Source of the DNA: Eubacteriales bacterium
GTDB lineage: Bacteria > Bacillota > Clostridia > Oscillospirales > CAG-272
Reading direction: 5' to 3'
Length of the DNA stretch: 64,000 nucleotides
NCBI GenBank assembly: GCA_045656745.1
Contig: JAZORT010000023.1
Coordinates: forward strand, 28,901 to 92,900
The stretch's first letter is position 1. The number at the start of each line of letters is the position of its first letter. This document shows, piece after piece, positions 18,316 to 40,187 of the stretch. The translations under genes and the position numbers were made by a program. Below the pieces are notes generated by a model that had not been told where the DNA came from, made no database searches, and saw only the letters and a list, made by a program, of their open reading frames with translations.

Positions 18316-19662
18316 ATGATTACATTTAAGTTACCGGAAGGATTTCTTTTTGGCACGGGCTCGTCGGCTCATCAGGTAGAGGGCGCGCCTTATGCAGACG
18401 GCAAGGGCGAGAACATCTGGGACTATGAGCATAGAGTAAATCCCTCATATTTCCACAACTGCTCTTCTACAAAGGAAGGCGCATTCTTCTACGAAAATTA
18501 CGAAAAAGATATTCTTGATATGAAGGAGCTTGGGCTAAAGAGCTTTCGTTTCTCCATATCCTGGACCCGTATTCTCCCTAAAGGCTACGGAGAGATAAAT
18601 CAGGCGGGCATCGACCACTACAACAGAGTAATAGACTGCCTTCTTGATGCGGGCATTGAGCCGTTTGTGGATATTTTTCACTGGGATTTGCCCCAGGCAC
18701 TTGCGGAGCGGGGCGGTTGGAAAAACAGAGAAATTATCGACCATTTCGTGAATTTTGCCAAAATATGCTTTGAAAACTTCGGTGACAGAGTAAAATATTG
18801 GAGCACAATGAACGAGCCTTCGGTCTTTACCTTTGCGCCCTATTACTGGGGCTCTTGGCCTCCCTTTGAGGAAAAGGTAGAGAGCGGAGTTCTTGCGGCT
18901 TATCACGCAATACTCTGCCATTACAGAACGGTAAGGCTTTATCGTGAAATGGGACTTTCGGGTAAAATCGGCGCGGTTATTGACGTTGTTCCGATGTATC
19001 CCAAAGACCCTGCGGGCAAGGACGTTATCGGAGCGCAAATTCAGCTTGAGCGTCAGTGCGGCTGGTGGCTCGACCCCATTTTCTTAGGCAAATATCCCGA
19101 GCTTATACTCAAGGAATGCTCTGATTTCGGCGAAGCAATGCCCGAGGGATACGAGGAAGAAATGGCGCGGGAGTTTGAGCCGGTGGATATGATAGGAATA
19201 AATTACTATTTCACCGGATGTGTTGAATACCGCGAGGACCTTCCCGAAAAGTCTAACCGAGTCGAGAATTACTATGTTCAGGAGGGACAGCGTTTTGAGC
19301 TTTATCCCGCCGGACTTTACGATGCTATGATGTATGTTACCAAAAAGTATAACCGCCCCGAGATTTACCTTACCGAAAACGGCCTCGGCGTGCTCTATGA
19401 CGGTGACAAGGAAAAGGAAATAAATGACGAAAACCGCATTTCTTATCTCAGAGAGCATCTTCGTATGATTTCCCGTTCTATTGACGCAGGCGCAGATATT
19501 CGCGGATATTACTATTGGTCAAACTTTGATATGTTCGAGGGCGCGGCAGGCTACAGCTACCGCTTCGGACTCAACTTTACCGATTACGAAACCGGAGAAA
19601 GAACACGAAAAAAGAGCTGGTACTATTACCAAAAGCTCATAAAAACCGGAAGCGTAGACTAA
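18316..19662 (+). CDS. Glycoside hydrolase family 1 (copy A)
   Basis: FRFSISWTRI, HWDLPQ, acid/base TMNEP, nucleophile YLTENG. Confidence 0.95.
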   Translation: MITFKLPEGFLFGTGSSAHQVEGAPYADGKGENIWDYEHRVNPSYFHNCSSTKEGAFFYENYEKDILDMKELGLKSFRFSISWTRILPKGYGEINQAGIDHYNRVIDCLLDAGIEPFVDIFHWDLPQALAERGGWKNREIIDHFVNFAKICFENFGDRVKYWSTMNEPSVFTFAPYYWGSWPPFEEKVESGVLAAYHAILCHYRTVRLYREMGLSGKIGAVIDVVPMYPKDPAGKDVIGAQIQLERQCGWWLDPIFLGKYPELILKECSDFGEAMPEGYEEEMAREFEPVDMIGINYYFTGCVEYREDLPEKSNRVENYYVQEGQRFELYPAGLYDAMMYVTKKYNRPEIYLTENGLGVLYDGDKEKEINDENRISYLREHLRMISRSIDAGADIRGYYYWSNFDMFEGAAGYSYRFGLNFTDYETGERTRKKSWYYYQKLIKTGSVD

Positions 19663-19721
19663 ATAAAGCAGACTAAATAAATTCGAAATGCGAAATTCGA
19701 AATTGAAATGAGGAACGGAGA

Positions 19722-21068
19722 ATGGTAACGTTTAAGCTGCCCGAGGGCTTTCTTTTTGGCACAGGCTCGTCGGCTCACCAGGTTGAGGGCGCGCCTTATG
19801 CAGACGGCAAGGGCGAGAACATCTGGGACTATGAGCATAGAGTAAATCCCACGTATTTCCACAACTGCTCTTCTACAAAGGAAGGCGCATTCTTCTACGA
19901 AAATTACGAAAAAGACATTCTTGATATGAAGGAGCTTGGGCTAAAGAGCTTTCGTTTCTCCATATCCTGGACTCGTATTCTCCCTAAAGGCTACGGAGAG
20001 ATAAATCAGGCGGGCATCGACCACTACAACAGGGTGATAGACTGCCTTCTCGATGCGGGTATTGAGCCGTTTGTGGATATTTTTCACTGGGATTTGCCCC
20101 AGGCGCTTGCGGAGAGGGGCGGTTGGAAAAACAGAGAAATTATCGACCATTTCGTGAATTTTGCAAGAATATGCTTTGAAAATTTCGGTGACAGAGTGAA
20201 ATATTGGAGCACCATGAACGAGCCTTCGGTGTTTGCTATGGCTCCATATCTTGAGGGCTATATGCGTCCCTTTGAAAAGAGCCTTGAGGGCGGACTTTTG
20301 GCTGCGCATATAACGCTTATCTGCCATTACAGAACGGTAAGGCTTTACCGAGAAATGGGGCTTTCGGGTAAAATCGGCGCGGTTATTGCGGTAGTACCAA
20401 CCTACCCGAAAACACCTAGCGAAAAGGACATTCTTGCGGCAAAAATACAAATGGACAGAGTTTGCGGCTGGTGGCTTGACCCAATCCTTACGGGCAAATA
20501 TCCCGAAACCATACTTAAAGAATGTCCCGACTACCTTAACGCAATGCCAAAGGGCTATTCCGAGGAGCTTTCACGCGAGTATTCTCCGGTGGATATGATA
20601 GGTCTTAACTATTATTATCCCGCCTTTGTAGAATACCGCGAGGATCTTCCCGAAAAATCCACGCACATGGAAAATTATTACGTTCAAGAGGGGCAGCTTT
20701 TCCAGCTTTATCCGGCAGGACTTTTTGACGCCATGATGTATATGACCGAAAAATACAATCGCCCCGAAATTTATATTGCAGAAAACGGACTCGGCGTGCT
20801 TTACGACGGTAATAAGGAAAAGGAAATAAATGACGAAAACCGCATCTCCTATCTCAGAGAGCATCTTCGTATGGTGGTGCGCTCTATCGAAGCGGGCGCG
20901 GATATTCGCGGATATTACTATTGGTCAAACTTTGATATGTTCGAGGGCGCGGCAGGCTACAGCTACCGCTTCGGACTCAATTTCACCGATTACGAAACCG
21001 GCGAAAGAACACGAAAAAAGAGCTGGTACTATTACCAAAAGCTCATAAAAACCGGAAGCGTAGATTAA
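19722..21068 (+). CDS. Glycoside hydrolase family 1 (copy B, tandem paralogue)
   Basis: Same motifs (TMNEP, YIAENG); ends nearly identical to copy A. Confidence 0.95.
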   Translation: MVTFKLPEGFLFGTGSSAHQVEGAPYADGKGENIWDYEHRVNPTYFHNCSSTKEGAFFYENYEKDILDMKELGLKSFRFSISWTRILPKGYGEINQAGIDHYNRVIDCLLDAGIEPFVDIFHWDLPQALAERGGWKNREIIDHFVNFARICFENFGDRVKYWSTMNEPSVFAMAPYLEGYMRPFEKSLEGGLLAAHITLICHYRTVRLYREMGLSGKIGAVIAVVPTYPKTPSEKDILAAKIQMDRVCGWWLDPILTGKYPETILKECPDYLNAMPKGYSEELSREYSPVDMIGLNYYYPAFVEYREDLPEKSTHMENYYVQEGQLFQLYPAGLFDAMMYMTEKYNRPEIYIAENGLGVLYDGNKEKEINDENRISYLREHLRMVVRSIEAGADIRGYYYWSNFDMFEGAAGYSYRFGLNFTDYETGERTRKKSWYYYQKLIKTGSVD

Positions 21069-21130: not shown

Positions 21131-22630
21131 TTATATACGATTGCTTTGTTTTACTGCCGTTTTTATTTTTTGCTTCAGGGCGGGGGTCTTGTATCTTGCG
21201 CCGAGCCTAAATGTCCAGTTGCCCTCGGCGGTGGAGGGTGTGTTCATTCTGCCCTCCTCGCTCTTTAACTCGAGGTAGTCCTGGATAGGAATTACGGCAA
21301 TAGCCGCCTTCGAGGAAAGGGTAAGGCCGATAAGGTCAAGGGTGAGGCTTTGCCCTTTTTTGTGTGGGCACTCGTGCTTAAATCTTGCAAGGGTCTCCCC
21401 CTCAAGAGAAAGGCAAAAGCTCCTTGTACATTCCGAGTCGTGGGAGCCGGTGTAGGCAATGCAGTTTTCGTCCTTGTAGCAACGGGGAAGATACTCACTG
21501 TCCTCATCGTAAAAGGCAAATTGCAAAATCTTCATTCCGGGGAAGCCTGTGTCCGAAAGAAGCTCTCTTACATCGTCGGTAATAAAGCCAAGATCCTCGG
21601 CAATTATCTTCGCCTCGGGAAAAGCTCGCTTTATCTCGCGGAAAAGCTCCTTTCCCGGAGCCTCGCGCCATTCACCCTCTCTTGCCGTATCGTGACCGTA
21701 GGGTATGGAATAATAGCCCGCAAAACCGCGGAAATGGTCTATTCGAAGCAGGTCGTAAAGGCGAAATCCCTCGCCTATTCTCTCTTTCCACCAGCCAAAG
21801 CCGTCGTTTTTCATCCTATTCCAATTATATATAGGATTTCCCCAAAGCTGACCGTCGGGCGAAAAGCCGTCGGGAGGACAGCCCGCAACACGCCTCGGCG
21901 CATAATTATCGTCAAGGAGAAATTCATTGGGCGCGCGCCAAACGTCCATACTGTCGTGGGCTACATAAATAGGCATATCTCCTATGATAGAAACGCCCCT
22001 TTTCCTTGCATAAGAGCGAAGGGCGCGCCATTGGGCGTCAAACTCGTACTGTACCCAGCACCAAAATCCCATTTCCGAGGAAAATTCCGCGGTCCTCTCT
22101 CTTGCGGAGTTAATATCGCGGTATTCGGCAGGCCACATTGTCCAAGCAGAGTGGTTAAAACGGCATTTCAGCGCCATAAAGAGGGCGTAATCCGAAAGCC
22201 AAGCCGTATTTTTAAGGAATTTTTCATATTCCTTTTGTTCTTTTTCGGTATTCAAAAATCTCGAGTATGCAAGTCTTAAAAGCGGGTATCTTGTCTCAAA
22301 AAGTCTGCCGTAATCCACCCTCTTTGCACCGGATTTGTGCGCTGAGGACTCGTTTTTTGTGAGAAGGCCCTTTTTTTGCAAAATCTCAAGGTCTATAAAG
22401 TAGGGGTTTCCCGCCATAGAAGCAGGCGATTGATAGGGACTGTCACCGTAAGAGGTGGGATTTAAGGGCAAAACCTGCCAATATTTATTTTTCGTTTCGG
22501 CAAGAAAGTCGGCAAACTCAAAAGCACTTTTGCCAAATCCGCCAATGCCGTAAGGCGAGGGCAGTGCGCTTATGGGCATAAGAATTCCCGCCCCGCGGGG
22601 AAAACTAACGGTTTTTTCTTTTTCGTTCAT
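21131..22630 (-). CDS. malQ: 4-alpha-glucanotransferase (GH77, amylomaltase)
   Basis: GILMPISALP, WQVLPLNP, GDSPYQS, GCPPDGFSPDGQLWGNP, RIDHFRG and AEDLG motifs. Confidence 0.95.
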   Translation of the reverse strand: MNEKEKTVSFPRGAGILMPISALPSPYGIGGFGKSAFEFADFLAETKNKYWQVLPLNPTSYGDSPYQSPASMAGNPYFIDLEILQKKGLLTKNESSAHKSGAKRVDYGRLFETRYPLLRLAYSRFLNTEKEQKEYEKFLKNTAWLSDYALFMALKCRFNHSAWTMWPAEYRDINSARERTAEFSSEMGFWCWVQYEFDAQWRALRSYARKRGVSIIGDMPIYVAHDSMDVWRAPNEFLLDDNYAPRRVAGCPPDGFSPDGQLWGNPIYNWNRMKNDGFGWWKERIGEGFRLYDLLRIDHFRGFAGYYSIPYGHDTAREGEWREAPGKELFREIKRAFPEAKIIAEDLGFITDDVRELLSDTGFPGMKILQFAFYDEDSEYLPRCYKDENCIAYTGSHDSECTRSFCLSLEGETLARFKHECPHKKGQSLTLDLIGLTLSSKAAIAVIPIQDYLELKSEEGRMNTPSTAEGNWTFRLGARYKTPALKQKIKTAVKQSNRI

Positions 22631-22865
22631 AAAATACTCCAAACAGTGGGCAAAAGCCCTATAAAAATTATATCACCGAGTAAAATAAAAGTCAACAAAT
22701 AAAATATGAAAAAAGCCTCGGAAATGTTCATAATCTGTTGACATTTGTCAATCGGTGTGTTAAAATATAAATCAAGGACCAAAATACTGATGAAAGGATT
22801 AAAATTTTCGTTTTCAATGCTATTTTGGTCTGAATTTTTTATAACACTTTTGGAGGAATAAGCAA

Positions 22866-24935: not shown

Positions 24936-26636
24936 TTATTTATCTTTTCTGCTCCTATAAATGTCTTTTACGGCGAAATAGGAGTTTTTCGGGCATCTGT
25001 ATTCGTTAAGAACACCCTTGTTGTTATAGCCTCTTGCGCGGGTGAGACCTGCGTCGGGAGAGGTGCGCATATCGCACATCTGCCAGATGTAAGTTCCCGC
25101 AATTTTCGGGTCGTCAAGGAAGAGGTTAAGGCAGTGGGAAAGGAGCTTTGCCTGATAATCCTCGCTCCACTTAAAGGTCTCAAAGTTGCGGTGGCCGTAA
25201 ACTGCCGCTCCGCCAAATTCGCTCATAATTATAGGCTTGTCGCCAAAGCCGAGGGAGTCGAGCCTTGCGTGTACCTTTTCAATAAAGCCTGCCCAGGAGT
25301 CAATATCCTCGCCGTACCAGCCGTTGTACTGATTTATTGAAACTGTGTCGCAAAATTCGTAAGAAATATCGGTAAGCGCCTTGTTGGTGGCATAGGTAAC
25401 AATGCGGTTGCCTCCAATCTCCTTTAAGAGATTGTAATAGATGCGCGACATTTCGTAGCCTGCCTTTGTCTCGGTCAAAATCTCGTTATGCATACCCCAA
25501 ATAATTATCGAGGGGTGGTTGTAATAGTGCTTTACCATTTCGCGGTGCATATCCGCGCCGCGGTTAACAACATCAGGGTCTGCAAGGCAGCTTTCCGAAA
25601 ATCCTCCGCCCCAAATTGGAATTTCGCTCCAGAAGAGAATACCCTGCTCGTCAAGCATATCTACGAAGTAGGGATCGTTCGGGTAATGAGAGCCGCGCAG
25701 AGTGTTGCAGCCCAGGTCGAGAGCAATATCAAGGTCTCTTTGCATAAGGCACCTCGGGAATGCAAAGCCGAATCCGGGATAGTCCTCGTGGCGGTTGACG
25801 CCGAGCAGGCGTATCTTTTCGCCGTTAAGGAAAATATCGGTCTTTTTTATCTCAACCTTGCGGAAACCGCACCTGTCAAAAAGGTCGTCGGTCGAGGTAG
25901 AAATTTTGATGTCATAGAGCTTCGGGGATTTTGGTGACCAAAGCTCAAAATTGTCGATTTTAAAGCTTTTTGTAAATACTTCTTTACATTCGTGGGGGTT
26001 AAGCTCGATTTTCTCTTCTGTTTCTACCCCTGCAACAGAAGCGGTGAGCGTGTCGCAAACCGCCTTGTTTTCCGCATTGTAAAGCTCTATCGCAAAGCGG
26101 GCGGTGAGAGTTTTCAAATCCTCAGAGAGGGTGTATTCAAGGCGGTTTGAGATGGGACAAATTCCCGAAAGGCGCTCTACCGTAACCGGACGGGTAATTC
26201 CTCCGCAGTGGTACCAGTCAACCACTCTTTGGGGAATGGATTTTTCGTCAAAGGAGTTGTCAACGCGCAGGGTAAGTCTGTGATAACCCTCGACAACCGA
26301 GTTTTCAATAAGCTCAAAGGCGCAAAAGCCGCCGTAATGGGAGCCGATCTCCTTGCCGTCAAGCCAAACTCTGCAATCGGTCATAACCGCGCCGAAAACA
26401 AATCTTACAGTACCACCCTCGGTGTAAAAGTCCTTTTCGTACCAGCAGGCACCCTCGTATTCAAGAAGTCCGAGCTTCTCTGTCCAAACAGAGGGGACAG
26501 TTACCGTCTCAGCACCCGAAAGTCCCGAAAACCAGCCCTCTTCTACTCCCGCATTACCGCCGTCAACCTTGAATTTCCAGGCTCCGTCGAGAGAGCGCAC
26601 ATTTCTTTTTATATGCTCGTCAAAAATTCTAATCAT
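24936..26636 (-). CDS. GH2 glycoside hydrolase, beta-glucuronidase-like
   Basis: GVNRHED, RGSHYP, acid/base WGMHNE, nucleophile SEFG, C-terminal NNKG (the NxKG motif typical of glucuronidases). Confidence 0.85.
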   Translation of the reverse strand: MIRIFDEHIKRNVRSLDGAWKFKVDGGNAGVEEGWFSGLSGAETVTVPSVWTEKLGLLEYEGACWYEKDFYTEGGTVRFVFGAVMTDCRVWLDGKEIGSHYGGFCAFELIENSVVEGYHRLTLRVDNSFDEKSIPQRVVDWYHCGGITRPVTVERLSGICPISNRLEYTLSEDLKTLTARFAIELYNAENKAVCDTLTASVAGVETEEKIELNPHECKEVFTKSFKIDNFELWSPKSPKLYDIKISTSTDDLFDRCGFRKVEIKKTDIFLNGEKIRLLGVNRHEDYPGFGFAFPRCLMQRDLDIALDLGCNTLRGSHYPNDPYFVDMLDEQGILFWSEIPIWGGGFSESCLADPDVVNRGADMHREMVKHYYNHPSIIIWGMHNEILTETKAGYEMSRIYYNLLKEIGGNRIVTYATNKALTDISYEFCDTVSINQYNGWYGEDIDSWAGFIEKVHARLDSLGFGDKPIIMSEFGGAAVYGHRNFETFKWSEDYQAKLLSHCLNLFLDDPKIAGTYIWQMCDMRTSPDAGLTRARGYNNKGVLNEYRCPKNSYFAVKDIYRSRKDK

Positions 26637-26639: not shown

Positions 26640-28151
26640 TTAACCTTTTCTTTTTTTGATGTATTGCTTTGGCGAAACGCCGTAAAATTGCTTAAAGTTC
26701 TTTGAAAATACCGCAGGGTCAACAATTCCGCACTGCTCGGCTATCCTTGAAATGTTTGCATCCTCGCCGAGAATAAGAAGAAGCTCCTTTGCCTTTTTCA
26801 TTCTTATTGTGGTAAGGTACTTTTTCGGGGTCATTTGCGTAACCTCGAAGAACTTTGTTCTAACATAGTCCTTGGCGTAACCGCTGTCGCGAAGAAGCTT
26901 GATGATGCTAAGCTCGCTGTTGCTGTAATTTTTCTTCATCTCGTCTATCATCTTATAGATTACCGCGTTCGTGTCGCTCTTGGGGAAATCTATATTAAGA
27001 AGAACGAACCTTAAATAGGCGTTGCAGAGCGAGTTAAAATATTCCTCGTTGGTATATCTGTTGTAAAGAGTAAGCTCCGCAAGCTTTCTGCCCTCGCCGT
27101 AAACATTGTCGTGAAGAAGGGTAGGGGAGGTAAACCTTGAAAGCTGGTCGAAATCACCCGTTACAGATATAATGTTGTATTTGCCCTCGGAGGTTATTCG
27201 GTGGTTTACTGCGGGAGGAACAATGATAATCGAGCCTTCGTAAATAGAAAATTCGTCCTGCTCGGTAATGAACACCGCATCTCCCGACTGAACGAGCATA
27301 ATCTCGTAGAGCTTGTGGGTGTGGAAAATCTGTGTGCCGTGAAGCTGCACACCCTTTGAGGCACTCCAAAGAGCAGGGTCCATAGAGAGAAAGTCGTCAA
27401 ACTTTTTAAGCCTCATATCTACAAAGAAGTCTTTTTCCGAGGGAATTCCGCCCTCGAAATCATAAACGCGCATAAGCTCGCTCGGAATATGCAGGGGAGA
27501 GGACGTGTCCTTGTAGCTCTCGCGCAAGAGGGTGAATGAAATATCGTCAAGATACTGAATACCCTTAATTTTCGTTGCGTAATGTATCATAAGCGCTCTT
27601 GTGGGGAGCTCGGTCTTTGCATTTATCTTAACATCGCGGAAGATGCGATCGGATCCACCGTCCTCTAAAACAAAGAGCTTCAGCCTTGAGTCTATGCCGT
27701 CAGAGTCAAGGTAGTATTCCGCGCGCAGGGTGTACCAGCTGTCGGAGCAAAGCCGTATTGCCTCGCTCTCGGGCAGGTCGGAAGGAAATACCGAAATCGA
27801 CCTTGCCGAAAGGTTGTTCTCTCCCTCGCTGATGTTAAAGCGCAGAGAAAAGCAGGATGTTCCCGCATTGTTACAAAACTCAATCTTAAAATACTTCTTC
27901 GAGTAATTCCAAACCGGCTCAAAGCGGTAACGCATTTCAAAAACAAAGGCGGTGGGCGAGGAGGACGCCGCGTTGCCCGCAATATTCGTTGTACTGCTGA
28001 TATTATGGGTGGTATTAGCGGTGAAAATCTTTATAACCTTGTTGTTTTTGTCGGTCGGGTCGGTGTCCTGGTAAAACCTGGCACCGTAAAGTCCATTAAA
28101 ACTAGGTGTGAGATCTTCATCATTAGAGATAACTCTGGCGTTGATTTCCAT
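26640..28151 (-). CDS. Extended AraC regulator (503 aa): lectin-like N-terminal domain, cupin, HTH
   Basis: 'HTHKLYEIMLV' cupin and C-terminal AraC HTH. The N-terminal ~260 aa aligns by eye with a module of lipoprotein 31743..37364. Confidence 0.88.
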   Translation of the reverse strand: MEINARVISNDEDLTPSFNGLYGARFYQDTDPTDKNNKVIKIFTANTTHNISSTTNIAGNAASSSPTAFVFEMRYRFEPVWNYSKKYFKIEFCNNAGTSCFSLRFNISEGENNLSARSISVFPSDLPESEAIRLCSDSWYTLRAEYYLDSDGIDSRLKLFVLEDGGSDRIFRDVKINAKTELPTRALMIHYATKIKGIQYLDDISFTLLRESYKDTSSPLHIPSELMRVYDFEGGIPSEKDFFVDMRLKKFDDFLSMDPALWSASKGVQLHGTQIFHTHKLYEIMLVQSGDAVFITEQDEFSIYEGSIIIVPPAVNHRITSEGKYNIISVTGDFDQLSRFTSPTLLHDNVYGEGRKLAELTLYNRYTNEEYFNSLCNAYLRFVLLNIDFPKSDTNAVIYKMIDEMKKNYSNSELSIIKLLRDSGYAKDYVRTKFFEVTQMTPKKYLTTIRMKKAKELLLILGEDANISRIAEQCGIVDPAVFSKNFKQFYGVSPKQYIKKRKG

Positions 28152-28372
28152 AACTTTGCCTCCTTTTGCCGATTTTTACAGTAATATTAGACCATATTTT
28201 GGTCGATTTGTCAATAATTTTTTCGCCCTATTTAGTTTTTTTGCGAAAAAACCTAGCAAAAAGACAAAAAAATCTCCCGTTCCTTATGTTATAATACAAG
28301 TAGAATGTAGAAGTATCTCTATATTCTTCATTTAGCTTATTAAAATTTCATAATAAAGGGAAAGGAGTTCAA

Positions 28373-28501
28373 ATGAAAAAAATCGAATACGTAAGCACAG
28401 AGTGCGAAGTTGTGCTTATCGAAACAAGTGACATTATCGCAACATCAAACGCACCCGGCTCCAGCGGCGGAAATATGGACGATTCCTGGGATGAAGGCTA
28501 A
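28373..28501 (+). CDS. Cassette 2 small peptide (42 aa) MKKIEYVSTECEVVLIETSDIIATSNAPGSSGGNMDDSWDEG
   Basis: Not in the ORF track. AAAGGAG RBS at 28361-28367; homologous leader; first gene of the operon. Confidence 0.82.
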   Translation: MKKIEYVSTECEVVLIETSDIIATSNAPGSSGGNMDDSWDEG

Positions 28502-28543
28502 AAAACAAAAAACAATACATAATTTTTGAAAGGAAAAGAAAAA

Positions 28544-30178
28544 ATGAAAAACACATTTACCAAAATCGCGCTTCTCGTTCTTTCTCTCGCTCTCCTTGCT
28601 TGCGTTCCCTTCGCAGTAAGTGCTGAGGAGACTTCGAACGAGGTTAAGATCCTTGCAAAGAACGTAATTTACGAGGATCAGATCAGATTAGTATTCGCAG
28701 TAGACGCAACCGTTGAGGAAGCTAACAACGTTAAGGTTGTTTACAAGTGGGGCGAGGATGGCGAAGTTAAGAACGCAGTTCTTCTCGATCCTACCGTTTC
28801 AGTCAACCTTTATAATGACCATCCTGCTTTCGCAATTGACGGCGTTCCCGCAAAGGAGCTTGCAGCTACCGTTTACGTAACTGCTTTTACCGGTGACGCT
28901 CCCGCAGACGATGCAGATTGGCTTACCTATTCCGCAGCAGAGTACTTCTATGCGAAGCTCTACAAGGACGGCTTTATTAACATGACCGAGGCAGACGGCG
29001 ATGACTATAACAGAAAGTGCCTCTACCAGACTCAGCTCGAGCTTGGTAAGTACGCACAGCTCGTTCTTAACTACAACGAAAATCAGCTTGCAACCGATTA
29101 TTCCTATATCTTCACCACTAACGAGAGCGTAAGCTTCGGCGGCAAGAGTACCGCTTTCGGCTACGGCGAGCTTAGCCTTACCGCAACCTCCGAGCTTGCT
29201 ATCTCGGGTTGGACTCTCACCGATATGAACGGAGAAGAAACCACTCTTGAAACCGCTATCCTCACTGCTAAAGGCGTTTATAGCGTAGAGCCTATCTTCG
29301 GCGGTCACGATTGCGCTGATGAAAATCCTGTAGACCACCTCTGTGATTCTTGCGGCGACCCTTTAAGCAGCTGTGCTACTAACGATAACAATCACCTCTG
29401 CGATCTTTGCGGCAAGGTAGCTTCCACTTGTGTTGACGCAGACAAGAACGGTCAGTGCGATGTTTGCTTTGTGTACAATTTCAACGTTGAAAGCATGGCG
29501 CAGTCCGAGCAGTTGAACATCTATAACGTTGCTTGGAACGGACAGGATACTACCGTAGAAGATAATTTCTCTTCTACCACGACTCTTACCACGTCTCAGA
29601 ACCGTCCCAGCGGCTTCGACAACGGCGAATGGTTCTGCCTTGCTGCCAATCCCACCGACGCTGCCGACACCGTTCTTAGATTCAATTCGATTTACAAGAA
29701 AGATAATACCGAGAAGTCCCACATAACCTTCGCTCCTAATGTTGAGGTTGAAAACGGCGACCTCGTTGTATTCGAGTTTGACTTCTACCATGTCAGCGGC
29801 GCTTCCTCAAAGAACCCCATTCGTTTCTACGATATTTATGCAGACGGTACGGCTTCTGCCGACTACACACCTACCTATACGAATGCGAATAACGTTGCAG
29901 TTTCCATAGGAACAACCAAACCTACGTTTGCTAAGGAAACTTGGGTAAGATACCGCCTCGTTTATAACAACTCTAACGATACTATTTATTGGTATTACAG
30001 CGTTGACGGCGGTGCAACCTATGCGTTTGCCGGCACAAACGCTTATAAGGCTGCAAGTGATATAGTTGCTGTCGGATTCAGAGGAAACAACGTATGGAAC
30101 GGCAACTCCACGCTTCTGTTCGACAACATTAAGTGTGTAAAGACTACCGCTGAGGCTTACGGTATCACCCTTAACTAA
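28544..30178 (+). CDS. Cassette 2 secreted protein: shared N-terminal domain, Cys/His-rich repeats, lectin-like module
   Basis: Sec signal ending VSA-EE; 'GVPAKEL...YSAAEYFYAKLY'; HLCDxCG repeats. Confidence 0.85.
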   Translation: MKNTFTKIALLVLSLALLACVPFAVSAEETSNEVKILAKNVIYEDQIRLVFAVDATVEEANNVKVVYKWGEDGEVKNAVLLDPTVSVNLYNDHPAFAIDGVPAKELAATVYVTAFTGDAPADDADWLTYSAAEYFYAKLYKDGFINMTEADGDDYNRKCLYQTQLELGKYAQLVLNYNENQLATDYSYIFTTNESVSFGGKSTAFGYGELSLTATSELAISGWTLTDMNGEETTLETAILTAKGVYSVEPIFGGHDCADENPVDHLCDSCGDPLSSCATNDNNHLCDLCGKVASTCVDADKNGQCDVCFVYNFNVESMAQSEQLNIYNVAWNGQDTTVEDNFSSTTTLTTSQNRPSGFDNGEWFCLAANPTDAADTVLRFNSIYKKDNTEKSHITFAPNVEVENGDLVVFEFDFYHVSGASSKNPIRFYDIYADGTASADYTPTYTNANNVAVSIGTTKPTFAKETWVRYRLVYNNSNDTIYWYYSVDGGATYAFAGTNAYKAASDIVAVGFRGNNVWNGNSTLLFDNIKCVKTTAEAYGITLN

Positions 30179-30231
30179 TATCAGTAAATAAGACTTAAAT
30201 TTATTAGGTTTTATCGATAAAATGTAACTTC

Positions 30232-30269
30232 ATCGCGGCTTTTCGGCAAAACCAAAAGCCGCGATTTTT
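30232..30269 (+). terminator. Intra-operon stem-loop or terminator after the cassette 2 secreted gene
   Basis: ATCGCGGCTTTT...AAAAGCCGCGATTTTT. Confidence 0.6.
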
Positions 30270-30426
30270 AACCAAAGACAGCCTTTCCAAAGTGAAAAGG
30301 CAACATCAACAGCTTGACGGATGCGGTGCTCGTTAGCCGAAAAAGCCCAAACGAAAGCCCCCGTCCCTTTGTGACAGTCTCCCCGAGGGAGGCTAGAGTC
30401 AGAAAGATAATAAGAGAATTAAAGAT

Positions 30427-31710
30427 ATGCATAATAAAAACATTTTGACAAAAGAAAGAATAGACTCTCTTCGAGAAATAAGAAACAAAAAGAGAGAAGA
30501 ATCCTTTGCTGCTCTCGTTCCCGCTATGGGCGAGGAAGCGGTGGAGGAGATAAGAAAAATCTACTCAATGTTTGACGAGAGAATGCTCGTTTGGATGGCA
30601 AACCTTTGGGAGCCTAACATTGGCGGATTTTATTATTCCAATTCCGCAAGAGACCACGAGGGCTTTCTTCCCGACCTTGAGTCCACCCATCAGGCGGTGA
30701 TCTTCATTACCGAGCAGTGCGGACTTGTCTCTAAGGATCAAATGCATATAACTGCAATCCCCGAGAGATTTGCTTCAAAAATGGCAGACTTTGCCTATGA
30801 TCTTCAGGACGAGGACGGCAGCTTCTATCACCCACAGTGGGGTAAAAACATAACCGCAACAAGAAAGGGCAGGGACGGTGCCGCGGCCTGGCGTCTTATC
30901 GAGCCTCTTGGCAGAAAGTGCAAGTATCTTCGCCTTTCACAGCGCCCGAAAAACGAGGAAACAAAGGCGGCATTGCCCGAATTCCTTGCCTCTACCGACA
31001 CACTTTTGGAATGGCTTGAGGGTCAGCGCATAGAAGAGCGCTCCTATCAGTTTGGTCATTATATAAACTCCACCTCAACAAACTTCTTTGTGGCGGGTCA
31101 GGAATACGTTGACACCCTGGTCGCTTGGCTTAACTCCAAAAACCGCGCGGATAACGGACTTTGGGAGCCGCAGGTTAACTACTCTTCGGTAAACGGACTT
31201 ATGAAGCTCAGCCTTTGCTACCCCGGCTTTGGCGCAAAGCTCCCCTATCCCGAAAAATCCTATGAGAGCGCAAGAGCCGCAGTGCTTTCCGATGAGCCTC
31301 TTACCTTTGCCTGCGAATATTACAACGCCTGGGCGGCTGTTAACAACTCCATAAAATCTATGGATGGCGAAATGGCAGAGGCCTACCGCGAAAAGCTCAA
31401 GCAGGATGCCCCCGAAATGATAAGAGTTACGGGCGAAAAAATGGCAAAGTGCAGAGTTGACGACGGAAGCTTTGCTTACTTTACCGCCGAGTCGGGAAAA
31501 GCCTGCCCTCGCTCGCAGGGTGCGCTTGTGGGCCTTGAAAATGTGAGAGAGGGAGACATAAACGGCAACGGTTGCTCGACCAGCGCCCCCTTGCGTCACC
31601 TTTTTGCGGCATTCGGTGTTGAAAAACCCACGATGTTTACCTCTGAGGATGCCGAGCTTATCTTCGAGCTTATGGACAATGCGGTCTCTCCTGTTAAAAA
31701 ACCGCTTTAA
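30427..31710 (+). CDS. Cassette 2 cytoplasmic unknown barrel enzyme
   Basis: GGFYYSNSARD, FLPDLEST, FYHPQWG, RKGRD, VNGLMK and EGDING motifs; no signal peptide. Confidence 0.85.
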   Translation: MHNKNILTKERIDSLREIRNKKREESFAALVPAMGEEAVEEIRKIYSMFDERMLVWMANLWEPNIGGFYYSNSARDHEGFLPDLESTHQAVIFITEQCGLVSKDQMHITAIPERFASKMADFAYDLQDEDGSFYHPQWGKNITATRKGRDGAAAWRLIEPLGRKCKYLRLSQRPKNEETKAALPEFLASTDTLLEWLEGQRIEERSYQFGHYINSTSTNFFVAGQEYVDTLVAWLNSKNRADNGLWEPQVNYSSVNGLMKLSLCYPGFGAKLPYPEKSYESARAAVLSDEPLTFACEYYNAWAAVNNSIKSMDGEMAEAYREKLKQDAPEMIRVTGEKMAKCRVDDGSFAYFTAESGKACPRSQGALVGLENVREGDINGNGCSTSAPLRHLFAAFGVEKPTMFTSEDAELIFELMDNAVSPVKKPL

Positions 31711-31742
31711 CATTCCTTTTTAAAATAAAAGCGAGGAAAATT

Positions 31743-34700
31743 ATGAAAAAAATTCTTTTACTTACACTTTCCCTCCTTCTTATTCTTGCGATGTGCGTTT
31801 CGTGCAACAAGAAGGACGGCGAAACAAAGCCCTCGGACGATACAAATGCTCCGAGCGGTGACAATACCGACACACCTCCGTCGGGCAGCCTTGTCTGGTC
31901 TGAAAATACAAGCACCTTGATATTGGTTAGCGACAGCGATAATTACGGAATTCTCGAGGTTTTGTCAACTCATGTTTACGAAACGTCCGGAAAAATACCC
32001 CAAGTCAAGGGTGAGGATGTGGATGGTAATTACGGCAGAATTATAGTTGGTGACAACGGCTCCGATATTGCGAAAAAGGCTTACAAAAAGCTTGACGATT
32101 ACGCAAATCTCCAGGGTCTTTTCGATTCAAAGAGAAGCGCATGGCTGATTTGGTCGGAAAACGGCACTATCGTTATTGCATACAGTGACCTTCTTGCTAA
32201 AAAGGACGCGATAGACTACATTGCCAAAAATTACACCACCGCGGCTTTCGGCCCCGGTAACGGCACTCTCTCAAAGGCAATATTTGATATTGAAGAATAT
32301 CTCACCGTCTTAAGGGAGACCGAGCAGGCTCCTTATATGCAGGAGCTTGGCGCAATTCTCGGCGCAGACGCTCTTGAAGCCTTTAAAAAGCTTTATTCTA
32401 TTTATGACGAGGACCTTTACGTTTGGCTTGCTAACCTTTGGTGTCCCGATAACGGCGGCTTCTATTATTCCGCCTCTGCGAGAAACAACGAGGGCTTCCT
32501 TCCCGACCTTGAATCTACCGGCCAGGCGCTGAAGATAATGGATAACGCAGGACTTTCGGTGGCTCTTGGCGGCAGCTGGCAGAAAATGCTTCCTAAGGAC
32601 ATTGCCGAAAAGCTGGTTAAGTTTGCATACGATATGCAGGCAGAGGACGGATATTTCTATCATCCCCAGTGGGGCACCGGAATTTCCACCACCAGAAGAG
32701 GCCGTGACGCAGGCTGGGCAAAAACCATTCTTTCGGGTCTTGGCGCAACGCCGAAATATCCTTACCTTAGCGGCATAACGACCCCCACCGCATCGCTCCA
32801 CCTTACCACCTCCCTCAAGGGAGGCTCCTCTGCGGAACTTGTTTCTAAGGTGATGCTAACTGCGGCAAGTAACTCAAAGTATGAATCCGAGGCAAGCTTT
32901 ATTGCCTACCTTGATTCGCTTAAATTTAACGAAAACTCCTATTCTGCGGGTAACGTAATAAACTCCACCACCTCCGAAATCAAGAAGGCGGGATATTGGC
33001 AGACTCTCAGAGATTATCTTACCGAGCATCAGAATCCCGAGAACGGTCTTTGGGAGGACGAGGTAACCTATCAGTCTGTTAACGGCTTAATGAAGCTTTG
33101 CACCTGCTTTGGCTCCTCTTATCCCAATGCTGAAAAGGCTCTCGAGTCGGCAATGCAGATACTTATGCGTCCTATTGACGACGAGCTTACGGGTATAACC
33201 TATGTTTACAACCCCTGGGTTGCTATTGCAAACCTTCTCCACGCGGTAAGCGACGAGACTGAGACTACCCTTCGTCAGATGCTTCGCGATAACGCAAAGG
33301 AAATATTCCTTATGACTGCCGAAAAGCTCTCTGCTTTTGCAAAGGATGACGGCGGCTTCTCCTACCTTAGAGATTATTCCTCTCCCTTCTCTCAGGACTC
33401 GCTCGTTGCAGTCAGCGGAAGCGTTGAGAGTGATGTAAATGCTACTACTATCGCTATCTCTACCGTTGTGCGTTATATGGAAGAGGTATTCGACCTTAAA
33501 TTCCCCCCTCTTTACTCAAGATACGAGGGAATCTATTTCGTAGATACCCTTACAAGCATGGGTACTATCATAAAGGACAGCCTTCTTGCCAAGGACCCCG
33601 AGGTTATCACCTTTGACGAATACGAAGATGATGACATTAAGGTCGACGCCAATGTTGTAACCAATCCTCACCCCGCTGTCGAAAACAGAATAGGTGATGC
33701 TGAGACCGACGGCAGCGAATATATCTGGTTTGAGGCAGCCCTTGTTCCCAACCCCAAAAAGGAGGCGGGCAACACCGACTATGTACTCTACGCGGGTGAT
33801 AAGACAAGACCCGAGGACAGCGGATACGATAAGCTTGTTGCAGAAACTGCAAGCTCTACCATATTTAACATTACCAACCTGGGCGCACCCGGAAACTGTT
33901 ACGTTTTCGAGGCAGATATGCTCTTCGGCGGCAGCGAAAGCAGCACAAGCCCCGTAGCTCAGCTTAACTTTGTAAGGGATACCGGCTCTGACCCCCTTAT
34001 CTCTGCTTGGGTAGACTTCTATCAGTACACGAGAGGTGGTCAGAATTACCTCAGAATTCAGGAATACTTCGCAGGTGCTGACGGCGTTAAGGATACCGAG
34101 GTCGTTGCGGGACTTCCCGTTGACGATTGGTTCAAGCTCCGCATCGAGATGTATAAGGATTACTCCGGCGAGGGCGGCGAGCTTAAAATAATGCTCAAAT
34201 TCTTCGTTAACGACAAGTTCGTAGGCATCTCCGACTCGGGTCACTACCAGAAGGGCGCATACAAGGACTTCCTTGTTAACGCAGTTAAGCTCTCTTATTA
34301 CAGACACGCAGCATCTTCCTTCTATCTTGACAACATCTATGTTGCAAAGAAGAATCTTACCTATGAGCTTGGTAAGTATGAGTCTGACGCGGTTGAAAGA
34401 CCCGTTAGCGACAAGAAGGTTTATGACTTTAATGACGGACTTATTCCCAACGGTCCCGACATCTGGACCGAGATGTACTACCGTAACGAGGACGGCGAGC
34501 AGGTTATGATGAACGCTGCCGATTGGACCAACGACCTTGATTCTCAGTTCGGCGGCTCCAAGGGTCCCGGCGCAAAGGTTTATATTGCAGACGACCCCGA
34601 GAGCGCGGCAAATAAGGTGCTTCGCGCATATTCCTTCAACACCAAGACCTCTTCCTATAAGGCAACAATGCATGTTGACGGAATGTTAACGAAGGAGGGA

Positions 34701-37364
34701 GCCGACACTTGGGAGGTAGAGTTTGACTACTACTTTGACAAGATCTCTTGGATCTACTCCAAAAACTTCTTCACCCTCGCATTCTGTAACGAAAACGGCA
34801 GTACGATGACTGCTATTAACTTCAACGGACTTAACTGGGACGATTCTCACAATACCGAGGTTCTCGGCATTGCTCTTAGTGACGGAACTACTCTTGAAAA
34901 CTTCGTTATTTACGATGCAACCTGGTACACCTTCAAGGTGGTTTATCACCACAACGAGACCAATCCCGCCGAGTCTATGCTTCTTATCTACGTTCTCGGT
35001 ACCGACGGATACCAGTGTATCGCAAATACCGCGGTAAGCAGTAAGTTCGGCGCAGTAAGCGGTGTTGACCTTGTGTTCCAGTGCTATGACATCAGAGGAA
35101 CTCAGTATATCGACGACCTTTCGGTTTCTATAACCGATACCGCCTACGTTTACGATAAGCCTATCGAGGGCGAGATAGAAATTCCCGTTCCCGAGGATAA
35201 CAAGATCTACGTTGAAGGCTCTCAGAGAGGAAACGGCGTATATTATGAAAATGCCGAAAGATATACCGCGGCGTCTCACGCCGAGCTTATCAAAAACGGC
35301 ATTATGGCAAAAAACACAAAGCGCGGCGACGGTATTGGCGACGGCAACCGTGAGCTTGAATTCGTTAATGTTGACGGCGGTTACGCCCTCTCTTACACAT
35401 CCACCGGCAGCGGCAACCACGCGCTCAACTTTGTATCAAAGGCTCCCGCAATAGACGGCTTCGTCTTCGAAACCGACATAAAGCTTTCGGGCGTTGATAC
35501 CGAGGAGGGCAGAGACATTCGCTTTACGGGTACTGCGACCAACGGTACTGCTGACTCGGGTCTCTACGCCTTCAACCTTAAATTCCATAAGAACCCCAAT
35601 GACAGAAGCGGCGGTTACATCGTTACTATACAGAACAACGAGCAGAAGGTCGTTATAAAGGACGACGTATGGGTAAACGTTCGCCTCGTTGCAGAGGGAA
35701 CAAAGGAAAACTCTCCTCTCAAGCTTTATATCAACGGCACGATGGTTGTTGAAAGCACTCTTAACGCAGATATTTCTACCATAAAGGGCGTTGAGCTTTA
35801 CACTCCTTCGACCTACAACGGCCACGGCTGGGAGCAGGGTACCGTTTACCTTGATAACACCTATGTTTCGGGTACCGGCGTTTACGTTCCTCCTCCCACC
35901 TTTACCGAGGAATCGAGAGGCGAGGGTAAGAACGCAGGAAGCGCAATCACCTATGAGGGAACAACCTATGACGACCTTGTCAATGGCGGTTATATGGCAA
36001 AGAACACCTCAAGAGGCGACGGAATTGAGGCAGGCAACAGAACACTTGAGCTTAAAGATGTTGACGGCGGTAATGCACTCGTTTATTCGGCTCTTGCCAG
36101 CGGAAACCACTCAATAAACTTCAAGAATGAAAACGATCCTCACTACGGCTTCCTCTTCGAAACCGACATTAAGCTTAACGGTATTAACAACTCGGACTCC
36201 AGAAAAGTAACCTTTGTGGGAACTAACTCAAACGGCACAAATAATGCAGGACTTTGGGGCGTTAACATCGGCTTCTATAAGAATACCGAGACCGAGGACG
36301 GCGGTTATATTGTAACCGTTGGCGGTGCTGAGGACGATTGGAAGGGCATTATCGCGGAGGATACCTGGGTAAATATCCGCTTTGAGTCCACCTCTCTTGC
36401 ACAGGACGGCGCATTCAGCTTCTACATCAACGGTGAAAAGGTTTGCGACGGCGCCCTTACCTCGGCTATCACCTCAATTAAGGGTATCGAGCTTTATACT
36501 CCTTCAACCTCGGGCGGCGAGGGCTTTGTCAGCGGTTCGATAAGCCTTGATAACACCTATGTTACCGGTACAAACGCGCCCGTAGAAGAGATTACCTCCA
36601 CCTCCAGAGGCGAGGGTCTGGGCGTTGATAAGGCTATAAGCTATGACGGCACAACCTACGATGAGCTTCTTGCAGGCGGTAGAATTCTCGAAAACACTTA
36701 TAGAAAAGACGGTGTTTTGGATGGACACAGAACTCTTTCTCTTGTAGATGTTGACGGCAACACAGCTCTCAAGTATTCTTCTATCGGCAGCGGCAACCAC
36801 GCAATCGACTTTGACATTGACGGCAAGGTTGAAGAGGGTCTTGTCTTTGAGACCGATATAATGCTCGAGGGAATTGACGCAAGCTTTGAAAGACCGATCA
36901 CCTTCTACGGCACATCCAACGGCGGCAGCGGAAACGTTGACGTTTGGAGCTTTGCTATCAAGCTTTGCGCTAACCCCGTAAAGACCCAGGGCGGTACATA
37001 TCTTCAGATTGCGGGAAGCTCTTTCCATATAGTTATTCCCGATAACACCTGGATAAACCTCCGCGTTGAGTTCAAGGGAACAAAGATGGGCGACAGATTT
37101 GATATCTATATTAACGGCGAATATGTTGATATGGGACATCTGTCCGGCTCTATCTCGGCAATGACCGCAGTTGAGCTTTACACCCAGTCCACCCTTAATG
37201 GCAATCAGGGTATGGAAAACGGCTCTATCTATCTCGATAACACCTATATCTACGGTATCGAGGCAGAAGGACAGCCCGAAAATCCCACGCCCGACACTCC
37301 TAATCCCGAGCAGGGAACAGGCTCCAGCAGCGGCAATTTGGACGGCGAGGGCTGGGAAGACTAA
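31743..37364 (+). CDS. Cassette 2 giant lipoprotein (1873 aa): barrel enzyme domain, five beta-rich modules, acidic Trp tail
   Basis: Lipobox CVSC, conserved barrel motifs, three ~230-aa C-terminal repeats, ends GSSSGNLDGEGWED. Confidence 0.88.
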   Translation: MKKILLLTLSLLLILAMCVSCNKKDGETKPSDDTNAPSGDNTDTPPSGSLVWSENTSTLILVSDSDNYGILEVLSTHVYETSGKIPQVKGEDVDGNYGRIIVGDNGSDIAKKAYKKLDDYANLQGLFDSKRSAWLIWSENGTIVIAYSDLLAKKDAIDYIAKNYTTAAFGPGNGTLSKAIFDIEEYLTVLRETEQAPYMQELGAILGADALEAFKKLYSIYDEDLYVWLANLWCPDNGGFYYSASARNNEGFLPDLESTGQALKIMDNAGLSVALGGSWQKMLPKDIAEKLVKFAYDMQAEDGYFYHPQWGTGISTTRRGRDAGWAKTILSGLGATPKYPYLSGITTPTASLHLTTSLKGGSSAELVSKVMLTAASNSKYESEASFIAYLDSLKFNENSYSAGNVINSTTSEIKKAGYWQTLRDYLTEHQNPENGLWEDEVTYQSVNGLMKLCTCFGSSYPNAEKALESAMQILMRPIDDELTGITYVYNPWVAIANLLHAVSDETETTLRQMLRDNAKEIFLMTAEKLSAFAKDDGGFSYLRDYSSPFSQDSLVAVSGSVESDVNATTIAISTVVRYMEEVFDLKFPPLYSRYEGIYFVDTLTSMGTIIKDSLLAKDPEVITFDEYEDDDIKVDANVVTNPHPAVENRIGDAETDGSEYIWFEAALVPNPKKEAGNTDYVLYAGDKTRPEDSGYDKLVAETASSTIFNITNLGAPGNCYVFEADMLFGGSESSTSPVAQLNFVRDTGSDPLISAWVDFYQYTRGGQNYLRIQEYFAGADGVKDTEVVAGLPVDDWFKLRIEMYKDYSGEGGELKIMLKFFVNDKFVGISDSGHYQKGAYKDFLVNAVKLSYYRHAASSFYLDNIYVAKKNLTYELGKYESDAVERPVSDKKVYDFNDGLIPNGPDIWTEMYYRNEDGEQVMMNAADWTNDLDSQFGGSKGPGAKVYIADDPESAANKVLRAYSFNTKTSSYKATMHVDGMLTKEGADTWEVEFDYYFDKISWIYSKNFFTLAFCNENGSTMTAINFNGLNWDDSHNTEVLGIALSDGTTLENFVIYDATWYTFKVVYHHNETNPAESMLLIYVLGTDGYQCIANTAVSSKFGAVSGVDLVFQCYDIRGTQYIDDLSVSITDTAYVYDKPIEGEIEIPVPEDNKIYVEGSQRGNGVYYENAERYTAASHAELIKNGIMAKNTKRGDGIGDGNRELEFVNVDGGYALSYTSTGSGNHALNFVSKAPAIDGFVFETDIKLSGVDTEEGRDIRFTGTATNGTADSGLYAFNLKFHKNPNDRSGGYIVTIQNNEQKVVIKDDVWVNVRLVAEGTKENSPLKLYINGTMVVESTLNADISTIKGVELYTPSTYNGHGWEQGTVYLDNTYVSGTGVYVPPPTFTEESRGEGKNAGSAITYEGTTYDDLVNGGYMAKNTSRGDGIEAGNRTLELKDVDGGNALVYSALASGNHSINFKNENDPHYGFLFETDIKLNGINNSDSRKVTFVGTNSNGTNNAGLWGVNIGFYKNTETEDGGYIVTVGGAEDDWKGIIAEDTWVNIRFESTSLAQDGAFSFYINGEKVCDGALTSAITSIKGIELYTPSTSGGEGFVSGSISLDNTYVTGTNAPVEEITSTSRGEGLGVDKAISYDGTTYDELLAGGRILENTYRKDGVLDGHRTLSLVDVDGNTALKYSSIGSGNHAIDFDIDGKVEEGLVFETDIMLEGIDASFERPITFYGTSNGGSGNVDVWSFAIKLCANPVKTQGGTYLQIAGSSFHIVIPDNTWINLRVEFKGTKMGDRFDIYINGEYVDMGHLSGSISAMTAVELYTQSTLNGNQGMENGSIYLDNTYIYGIEAEGQPENPTPDTPNPEQGTGSSSGNLDGEGWED

Positions 37365-38613: not shown

Positions 38614-38653
38614 AGCAAAACAACCAAATTTTAAAACTTGAAAGGGTAAAAAA

Positions 38654-40120: not shown

Positions 40121-40132
40121 ATAAAAACTGCT

Positions 40133-40168: not shown

Positions 40169-40187
40169 GAAAACAAAGGTTTACAAA

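Follow-up and report, generated by a model that had tools for sequence, protein, structure and literature searches.

The stretch of DNA analysed here (hereafter the window) comprises 64,000 nt of contig JAZORT010000023.1 from a Eubacteriales bacterium, an uncultured gut member of the Clostridia. Its main subject is a pair of divergently oriented genes. An open reading frame (ORF) at 26640-28151 on the minus strand encodes a 503-aa regulator of the AraC/XylS family (P0001), and another at 31743-37364 on the plus strand encodes an 1873-aa lipoprotein (P0002) with a lipobox-type signal peptide. The N-terminal part of the regulator was found to be homologous to the second of five repeated modules of the lipoprotein (module B), and a short segment that precedes the core of this module in the lipoprotein follows it in the regulator. 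The relevant parts of both proteins are given below, with independent E-values (i-E) from hidden Markov model (HMM) searches.

26640..28151, minus strand: AraC-family regulator P0001 (translation; Pfam; 20 homologues of 496-504 aa)
28092..28151, minus strand: regulator aa 1-20, degenerate segment tail, 'INARVISNDEDL', aligned by BLASTP with lipoprotein 'MNAADWTNDLDS'
27507..28091, minus strand: regulator aa 21-215, beta-sandwich core, homologue of module B (module HMM i-E 2.6e-65)
27471..27506, minus strand: regulator aa 216-227, linker of variable sequence (top-residue frequency averaging 0.36 over 25 regulators)
27366..27470, minus strand: regulator aa 228-262, displaced segment, 'VYDFEGGIPSEKDFFVDMRLKKFDDFLSMDPALW' (top-residue frequency 0.80; profile hits in 8 lipoproteins)
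27111..27314, minus strand: regulator aa 280-347, cupin, the AraC-type effector/dimerisation domain (Pfam AraC_binding, 269-332)
26655..26891, minus strand: regulator aa 421-499, double helix-turn-helix DNA-binding domain (Pfam HTH_18, 424-499)
31743..37364, plus strand: giant lipoprotein P0002, 1873 aa (lipobox ...AMCVSC; orthologues at the related loci L001-L007)
33825..34367, plus strand: lipoprotein aa 695-875, module 1 (A) (module HMM i-E 8.9e-43)
34389..34535, plus strand: lipoprotein aa 883-931, segment 'KVYDFNDGLIP...MNAADW', predicted N-terminal strands of module B (AlphaFold2, AF2)
34563..35153, plus strand: lipoprotein aa 941-1137, core of module 2 (B) (module HMM i-E 5.2e-52; trees)
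35367..37274, plus strand: lipoprotein aa 1209-1844, modules 3-5, which form a more remote subtype (39-44% identity among themselves)

The affiliation of the regulator was clear from its C-terminal part. Matches to Pfam models HTH_18 (1.8e-15, 57.4 bits for a cut-off of 33.6) and HTH_AraC (1.6e-12, 47.7 bits, cut-off 26.6) place it among the AraC/XylS helix-turn-helix (HTH) proteins, and a match to AraC_binding (1.2e-6, 28.7 bits, cut-off 21.1) places it in the subgroup with an AraC-type cupin. The ~265 residues ahead of the cupin matched no Pfam or NCBIfam model. Neither a signal peptide nor a hydrophobic helix was detected (the highest 19-residue Kyte-Doolittle mean was 0.79), and the protein appears to be a cytoplasmic one-component DNA binder. 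A GGAGG sequence occurs upstream of its ATG, and a Met-x-Ile-x-Ala start was common to 21/21 aligned regulators, preceded in one of them by six additional residues. A regulator starting further upstream, and encoding there the sandwich strands that it lacks (see below), was ruled out: the ORF is already maximal and its start is conserved in all 21.

The similarity between regulator and lipoprotein was first pointed out in a first-pass annotation made from the sequence, which aligned the regulator N-terminus with one lipoprotein module and called for a significance estimate. This alignment proved robust. BLASTP matched regulator residues 3-223 with lipoprotein residues 923-1148 at 74.7 bits (E=1e-17, 57/229 identical, 25%), and a second, colinear high-scoring segment pair joined regulator 110-274 to lipoprotein 766-940 (37.4 bits, E=3e-6). 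Smith-Waterman comparison of regulator 1-215 with the whole lipoprotein gave a score of 202, which is 29 standard deviations (SD) above shuffled sequences (mean 41.9, SD 5.4, maximum 63; 0/300 reached 202). All five peptide pairs quoted in the annotation are present in both translations, and its coordinates hold: 27370-28151 corresponds to regulator aa 1-260, and 34410-35150 to the segment plus the second module (34389-35153 by the present delimitation).

The annotation further placed a segment, here summarised as 'YDFxxG...DPxxW', ahead of the homologous block in the lipoprotein and behind it in the regulator, which was borne out by BLASTP and by a profile built from 24 regulators. For the pair under study, regulator 217-263 and lipoprotein 881-929 share 30.6% identity over 49 aa, with an E-value of 0.022 in a six-sequence comparison that is borderline by itself. 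The corresponding Smith-Waterman score of 49 was not reached by shuffled segments, either against the whole lipoprotein (mean 30.7, maximum 48; 0/300) or against lipoprotein residues 876-940 (maximum 46; 0/1000). Homology of the segment was settled by the 24-regulator profile, since it specifically matched the stretch between modules 1 and 2, just before module B, in eight lipoproteins. Its i-E values, relative to a set of only 55 sequences, were 1.3e-10 (P0030), 1.2e-8 (P0038), 8.7e-8 (P0031), 5.4e-7 (P0032), 2.3e-6 (P0040), 1.6e-5 (residues 883-931 of P0002 from the window) and 2e-3 (P0029 and P0034). The order of the elements is thus segment (883-931) then core in the lipoprotein, whereas it is core then segment (228-262) in the regulator.

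This architecture was observed in 20/20 close homologues and also in the more distant representatives P0023, P0024 and P0025, of full or nearly full length (32-39% identity). The loss of the domain from orthologous regulators, which the first-pass annotation had named as a refuting outcome, was therefore not seen. A scan of genome contigs retrieved 11 loci, seven of which (L001-L007) encode a full-length relative with 42-73% identity. In all seven, the regulator gene is divergent from a triad coding for a secreted protein, a cytoplasmic paralogue of the lipoprotein's N-terminal domain and the lipoprotein. Within the genome under study, 11 other ORFs with an AraC-type HTH (241-304 aa) displayed neither module nor segment, and at least four of them adjoin other cassettes of the same kind. 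Likewise, the regulators beside the two other triads of the window are a plain cupin-HTH protein (16435-17250) and a PocR-HTH protein (37438-38310). Since these other AraC-HTH ORFs are devoid of the module, the latter is a specific addition to one regulator lineage.

An iterated module profile detected 106 copies of the ~200-aa module in the 55 collected sequences, including five in the present lipoprotein (695-875, 941-1137, 1209-1383, 1417-1616 and 1667-1844). Modules A and B displayed no direct BLASTP similarity (E 4.4) and are linked only through the profile. The module family is narrow: a phmmer search with regulator 1-265 against 1.84 billion representatives returned just 29 proteins at E<=1e-3, namely six regulators or fragments thereof and 23 others, 496-2274 aa in length, of which many carry a lipoprotein-type signal peptide. 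A quick tree built from 130 modules grouped the regulators in one clade (support 98), joined at 99 by 16 second-position modules. In a careful tree (57 rows), the regulators were supported at 99/91, the B modules at 99/93 and the two together, against the 31 others, at 98/96. Both trees are unrooted. Because of these supports, a single origin is indicated for the regulator domain, which is placed as sister to the lipoprotein's second module (B). Seven residues were found in at least 80% of both regulators and B modules and in at most 24% of the other 97 modules (G23/G943, N46/N966, Y75/Y996, W81/W1003, F105/F1027, Y140/Y1062 and Y146/Y1068, regulator and lipoprotein numbering, respectively).

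Predicted folds were obtained with AF2 from a 21-row alignment for the regulator and from a 14-row alignment for lipoprotein residues 870-1149. The regulator model consists of a beta-sandwich at about 24-210 (block-mean predicted local distance difference test, pLDDT, mostly 70-94), followed by the cupin and then the HTH domain. The cupin matched AraC (2arc/1xja) and the BgaR lactose sensor (6nwo) with VIA Z-scores of 11.9-12.4, and the HTH domain matched that of Rns (VIA Z 11.2, rmsd 1.6-1.7 A). The lipoprotein model is one compact domain (mean pLDDT 87.1, pTM 0.86) in which the segment is well defined, with block means of 84-93 over residues 890-929 (model residues 21-60) and 63 over model residues 11-20; it displays strands at 907-914 and 920-924, followed by a helix at 930-937. 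The lipoprotein unit (segment plus B) matched 5mqr, the beta-sandwich of the BT_1020 sialidase (Z 16.5, rmsd 2.8 A, 176 aligned), and 2w68, the lectin domain of the Vibrio cholerae sialidase (Z 13.9), while the regulator core matched 5mqr with a VIA Z of 13.5 (2.5 A, 154 aligned). Both models also matched the domain of an Akkermansia GH181 sialidase (8axs), lyases of families PL7, PL14 and PL36, and legume lectins. A Z of at least 8 was reached in 604/1000 compared chains for the lipoprotein unit and in 510/1000 for the regulator core, so that both are predicted, from models only, to adopt the same concanavalin A (ConA)-like beta-sandwich. This answers the fold comparison proposed by the first-pass annotation.

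The same comparisons position the segment within the fold. Solved lectin-like domains align with the lipoprotein model from its residue 18-20 onwards. On all five shared targets, the regulator core begins 21-33 target residues later than the lipoprotein unit: 437 versus 412 in 5mqr, 50 versus 22 in 2w68_A, 22 versus 1 in 2pel_A, 54 versus 21 in 6kcv_A and 415 versus 382 in 8axs_A (these ranges record first and last aligned residues only). Because of this later start, the segment corresponds to the N-terminal part of module B that is missing at the N-terminus of the regulator core, and in the lipoprotein it is predicted to form the N-terminal strands of the module. In the regulator, the displaced segment retains the YDF motif and a strand-like alternating hydrophobic pattern. 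It is under strong constraint: at 0.80, its top-residue frequency nearly equals that of the HTH domain (0.81) and exceeds those of the core (0.64) and of the flanking linkers (0.36 and 0.32).

The regulator thus displays the same elements as module B in rotated order, around cores of the same predicted fold, and a structural circular permutation of its domain is plausible. Natural circular permutation has a precedent in the ConA-like fold, that of concanavalin A with respect to other legume lectins. Regulator residues 1-12, which include a strand at 4-9, moreover resemble the tail of the segment ('INARVISND' vs 'MNAADWTND'). A degenerate N-terminal tail together with a full copy after the core is what an out-of-phase cut of a tandem array is expected to give. 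Arrays colinear with the core-then-segment order occur in P0033 (aligned over regulator 17-239) and P0050 (over 24-241), where a YDFE-type start of the next unit comes right after the matched core. The rotated order would be explained most simply by capture from such an array. The first-pass annotation had offered circular permutation and a tandem-repeat leftover as alternatives; the rotation itself stood, and the opposition between the two did not, since the coexistence of remnant and full copy makes them two stages of one route. Its proposal that a surface domain was recruited into the regulator is consistent with a cytoplasmic regulator whose domain falls, in the trees, inside a family otherwise found in exported proteins. 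A complex prediction between regulator 1-222 and 223-275 (score 0.01, mark 0.32) lacked controls and was not used either way.

The region between the regulator gene and the divergent operon was aligned across 8 loci (alignment A3), which delineated the following elements.

28231..28269, unstranded: imperfect inverted repeat (I3) TTTAGTTTTTTTGC-N11-GCAAAAAGACAAAA (invariant columns in the 8-locus alignment)
28287..28295, plus strand: TGTTATAAT, putative extended -10 of the divergent operon (invariant columns A246-A254 of A3)
28209..28214, minus strand: TTGACA, putative -35 of the regulator's own promoter (TTGACAA invariant in 8/8 loci)

The regulator promoter also displays an extended -10, within an invariant block. 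No good -35 was found upstream of the operon's TGTTATAAT, and the inverted repeat, a candidate operator, lies across the place where the -35 of the operon promoter would be. Among sequencing runs that contain this DNA, the 11 listed were all DNA gut metagenomes (shares <=0.37), with none of RNA.

The other genes and domains of the locus are as follows.

24936..26636, minus strand: glycoside hydrolase of family GH2, 566 aa (Pfam Glyco_hydro_2_C at 4e-37, with matches to the _N and central domains as well)
28373..28501, plus strand: 42-aa ORF, first gene of the divergent operon (ribosome-binding site GGAAAGGAG; homologous ORF in 8/8 loci)
28526..30178, plus strand: secreted 550-aa protein with signal peptide (syntenic in L001-L007)
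30427..31710, plus strand: cytoplasmic 427-aa protein, no signal peptide (paralogue of the lipoprotein's N-terminal domain)
32292..33611, plus strand: lipoprotein aa 184-623, uncharacterised 440-aa N-terminal domain (homology to the 427-aa protein)

The GH2 enzyme has no signal peptide and its gene starts 3 nt downstream of the regulator gene, on the same strand. The 42-aa ORF matched no Pfam or NCBIfam model and obtained one hit only in an index of 5.8 billion proteins, and it is present upstream of the secreted-protein gene in 8/8 related loci, the window included. It is one of a group of related short ORFs (~40-50 aa) that follow the pattern M..K.Y..A.(L/I)E(I/V)..F...D(V/I)I(A/T)TS...(N)(I/V)D..GW(T), for which a loose search of the 1.75-Mb assembly found 14 more copies besides the one at 28373-28501 (+), including one at position 38452 (+) of the window. 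Translation of the secreted protein probably begins at the ATG at 28544. The C-terminus of this protein is weakly module-like, and a Cys-rich region in which a 'C-D-x-C' spacing recurs (HDCADENPVDHLCDSCGDPLSSCATNDNNHLCDLCGKVASTCVDADKNGQCDVCF) separates it from the N-terminal domain.

The 427-aa protein and lipoprotein residues 184-614 share 34.5% identity (E=5e-75). No Pfam or NCBIfam model matched the 427-aa protein, a sequence search of solved structures gave 0 hits and a 14-row profile against the same structures gave best E-values of only 1.1 and 3.4. The 440-aa lipoprotein domain likewise matched no Pfam, NCBIfam or PDB family, and Pfam searches with 14 sequences of this type returned nothing below an E-value of 0.075 (TED_complement, in 1/14 members). 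In the Atlas, the rank-16 cluster for the 427-aa protein carries Prenyltrans on 13% of its members. Together these give only a weak lead towards an alpha/alpha-toroid fold, prenyltransferase- or TED-like. More generally, NCBIfam holds no family for the regulator N-domain, the lipoprotein, the secreted protein, the 427-aa protein or the 42-aa ORF.

The locus is one member of a very large family of cassettes, each composed of a secreted module protein, a cytoplasmic protein of ~430-490 aa and a giant lipoprotein that repeats the domain of the latter together with beta-sandwich modules. Three of them occur in the window (8559-16383, 28373-37364 and 38452-45680), each beside a different kind of AraC regulator. 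By tblastn, 52 copies of the ~430-aa domain were recorded on 19/46 contigs of the assembly, along with 15 copies of the N-terminal part of the secreted protein. None of the cassette proteins belongs to a curated family. In the window, the gene of the cytoplasmic paralogue (30427-31710, 40149-41525 and 8559-10022) directly precedes each giant lipoprotein gene, with 32-36% identity to the N-terminal domain of the lipoprotein, and many residues are invariant between them (e.g. the GFYYS, LPDxEST and FYHPQW motifs). Cytoplasmic glycoside hydrolases surround the cassettes (45792-47390, 18316-21068 and 21131-22642) and comprise a GH20 with a GH20C C-terminal domain, two tandem GH1 enzymes and a GH77 4-alpha-glucanotransferase; they fit a sugar-harvesting lifestyle and do not name its substrate. 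Further along, a probable prophage stretch (54390-63863, minus strand) encodes a capsid-like protein (Phage_capsid_4, just below the cut-off), portal-like proteins (SU10/P22 portal) and an 880-aa protein with BspA-type leucine-rich repeats.

Taken as a whole, the explanation that we favour, and consider reasonably probable, is that of an AraC-type regulator of the divergent operon which acquired a B-derived sandwich by out-of-phase capture and uses it for effector sensing. A tandem [segment-core][segment-core] array of B-type units would have been cut from the middle of one segment to the end of the next, and the excised stretch fused ahead of an ordinary cupin-HTH AraC gene, a route referred to as 'permutation by duplication'. 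This capture would have been a single event, preceding the divergence of the present regulators. The homology suggests that the regulator senses what the lipoprotein binds: its sandwich would bind a cytoplasmic effector related to the outside ligand of module B, most likely an oligosaccharide fragment in view of the fold neighbours of the models and of the glycoside hydrolases at the locus (GH2, GH20 and GH1). The displaced segment would supply the missing sandwich strands, whether in cis or to the other chain of the AraC dimer in trans, or might alternatively couple the sandwich to the cupin. Occupancy by the effector would then alter the action of the HTH pair at the A/T-rich inverted repeat over the operon -35, and the cytoplasmic GH2, being co-transcribed, would act on the same imported sugar by trimming it. 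A more specific version, which we advance only tentatively, holds that the sandwich is a working circular permutant completed by the YDFEDGIPS...MRLKK strand pair, which follows the core and is strictly conserved, possibly through a strand swap in the dimer, and that the regulator and the 427-aa protein mirror recognition of the same glycan at the surface.

Several observations weigh against this explanation. No sugar transporter lies in the operon or adjoining it, the nearest transporter in the window being a major facilitator superfamily gene at 7039-8274, which leaves the effector's route into the cell without explanation. The GH2 gene is found downstream of the regulator in only 4/8 loci (window, L001, L003 and L006). 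By sequence, neither the regulator N-domain nor module B matches a curated carbohydrate-binding module (CBM) or lectin family: Pfam gave no hit at all on regulator 1-265 or module B, Laminin_G_3 remained sub-threshold on modules 3-5 (E 0.015, 15.9 bits, cut-off 27.6), the two hits of the regulator N-domain among solved structures were not usable (E 0.054 and 0.67), and the Atlas yielded weak leads for it (DUF6645 at 0.91; Sialidase-like_CBM at 0.90 with 142 shared features). A predicted fold is by itself no proof of sugar binding, and residues specific to regulators and B modules (G23/G943, N46/N966, Y75/Y996, W81/W1003, Y140/Y1062 and Y146/Y1068) could be core residues instead of a binding site. 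As to the permutation, regulator residues 233-275 have a pLDDT of 25-38 and the model assigns no position to the displaced segment. Nor does the regulator show a clean one-for-one permutation, because an N-terminal copy of the segment's second strand is kept, and this remnant would compete with the second half of the displaced segment. Finally, with trees that are unrooted, it is parsimony that sets the direction of transfer.

These points leave room for other readings to differing extents. For the permutation, the main competitor is that the segment is the stub of a lost second unit, next to a sandwich complete without it, and now serves as a connector or an AraC-style 'arm', with no structural permutation at all. 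We regard this as a possibility to be taken seriously, if not a likely one. It agrees with the unplaced segment, with a core modelled without it at block-mean pLDDT mostly of 70-94, with the N-terminal copy of the second strand and with the location of the segment directly upstream of the cupin, comparable to that of the regulatory N-terminal arm ahead of the cupin in Escherichia coli AraC. Yet, a YDF motif and an alternating hydrophobic pattern maintained at a top-residue frequency of 0.80 are unusual for a flexible connector, and on every shared structural target the regulator core falls 21-33 N-terminal residues short of what the lipoprotein module covers. The effector itself might also be a protein. 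By analogy with a supposed contact between the corresponding domains inside the lipoprotein, the B-like module of the regulator would bind the 427-aa protein and read its state, which would accommodate the lack of a nearby transporter for a sugar effector, the 34.5% identity between this protein and lipoprotein 184-614, and the joint maintenance of both cytoplasmic paralogues in 7/7 related loci. We find this improbable, as other cassettes of the genome pair the cytoplasmic paralogue with an AraC protein devoid of the module, so that the pairing is not general, and as the nearest folds are sugar-binding or sugar-cleaving sandwiches.

The history of the domain could in principle run backwards, the module having been born in the regulator lineage and later inserted into lipoproteins as their second module. 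Unrooted trees in which regulators and B modules are reciprocally monophyletic would allow it, but about 100 exported copies in tandem arrays stand against one regulator clade, and the segment-core unit is intact in lipoproteins and rearranged in regulators, which makes this direction very unlikely. Chance or compositional similarity, or a chimeric assembly, can be practically dismissed: a pairwise identity of only 25% could raise such a doubt, and it is refuted by E=1e-17 and z=29 against shuffles on the one hand, and by the recurrence of the architecture in 20 proteins from independent assemblies and at seven reference-genome loci on the other.

The favoured explanation has a close parallel in Btr of Bacillus subtilis. 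According to PMC3333878, Btr is an AraC-type activator whose ligand-binding domain is homologous to FeuA, the exported binding protein of its target feuABC, with binding over the -35 region and immediately ahead of it. The likeness lies in a sensor homologous to an exported protein of the adjacent divergent operon, as observed here from the trees (98/96) and from synteny (7/7). The borrowed domain of Btr has a substrate-binding-protein fold and is C-terminal, and its ligand (bacillibactin) and transporter are known. In contrast, the present regulator carries a predicted ConA-like sandwich at the N-terminus, ahead of a retained cupin and with its first strands displaced. By analogy, this arrangement can be viewed as a new variant of the Btr type. 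The RsgI anti-sigma-I factors of cellulolytic clostridia are also reported to possess sensor modules (CBM3, PA14 and others) paralogous to modules on the secreted enzymes they control; these sensors lie outside the cell and transmit their signal through the membrane by proteolysis, whereas the present regulator is a one-component protein without a membrane segment. AraC and BgaR share the cupin, the helical region and the double HTH with this regulator and are devoid of a lectin-like domain ahead of the cupin, where it has ~265 extra residues. As for solved ConA-like sandwiches (5mqr, 8axs, 2w68, the PL7/PL14/PL36 lyases and legume lectins), they have the same predicted fold as both domains, with sequence identities of 6-15% and no curated family model; the likeness is one of fold. 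At the level of titles and the beginnings of abstracts, and with subscription journals outside the coverage, the literature searched showed no AraC regulator with a CBM or ConA-like N-terminal domain.

In conclusion, the regulator is an AraC/XylS member with a predicted ConA-like sensor and a candidate, though unproven, natural circular permutant. It offers a natural candidate intermediate in circular permutation by duplication, in which the older N-terminal remnant survives alongside the newer C-terminal copy, and it would extend the Btr/FeuA logic from transport binding proteins to lectin-like sandwiches. If the sandwich is completed as proposed, effector binding would be mechanically coupled to the geometry of the AraC dimer, and, within the very large and uncharacterised family of cassettes, this locus would be the regulated one. 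The regulator module may also serve as a soluble, cytoplasmic and easily expressed stand-in for finding the ligand of the lipoprotein. As such, it provides a handle on an unstudied system whose lipoproteins, cytoplasmic paralogues and secreted partners fill a large part of the genome and belong to no curated family.

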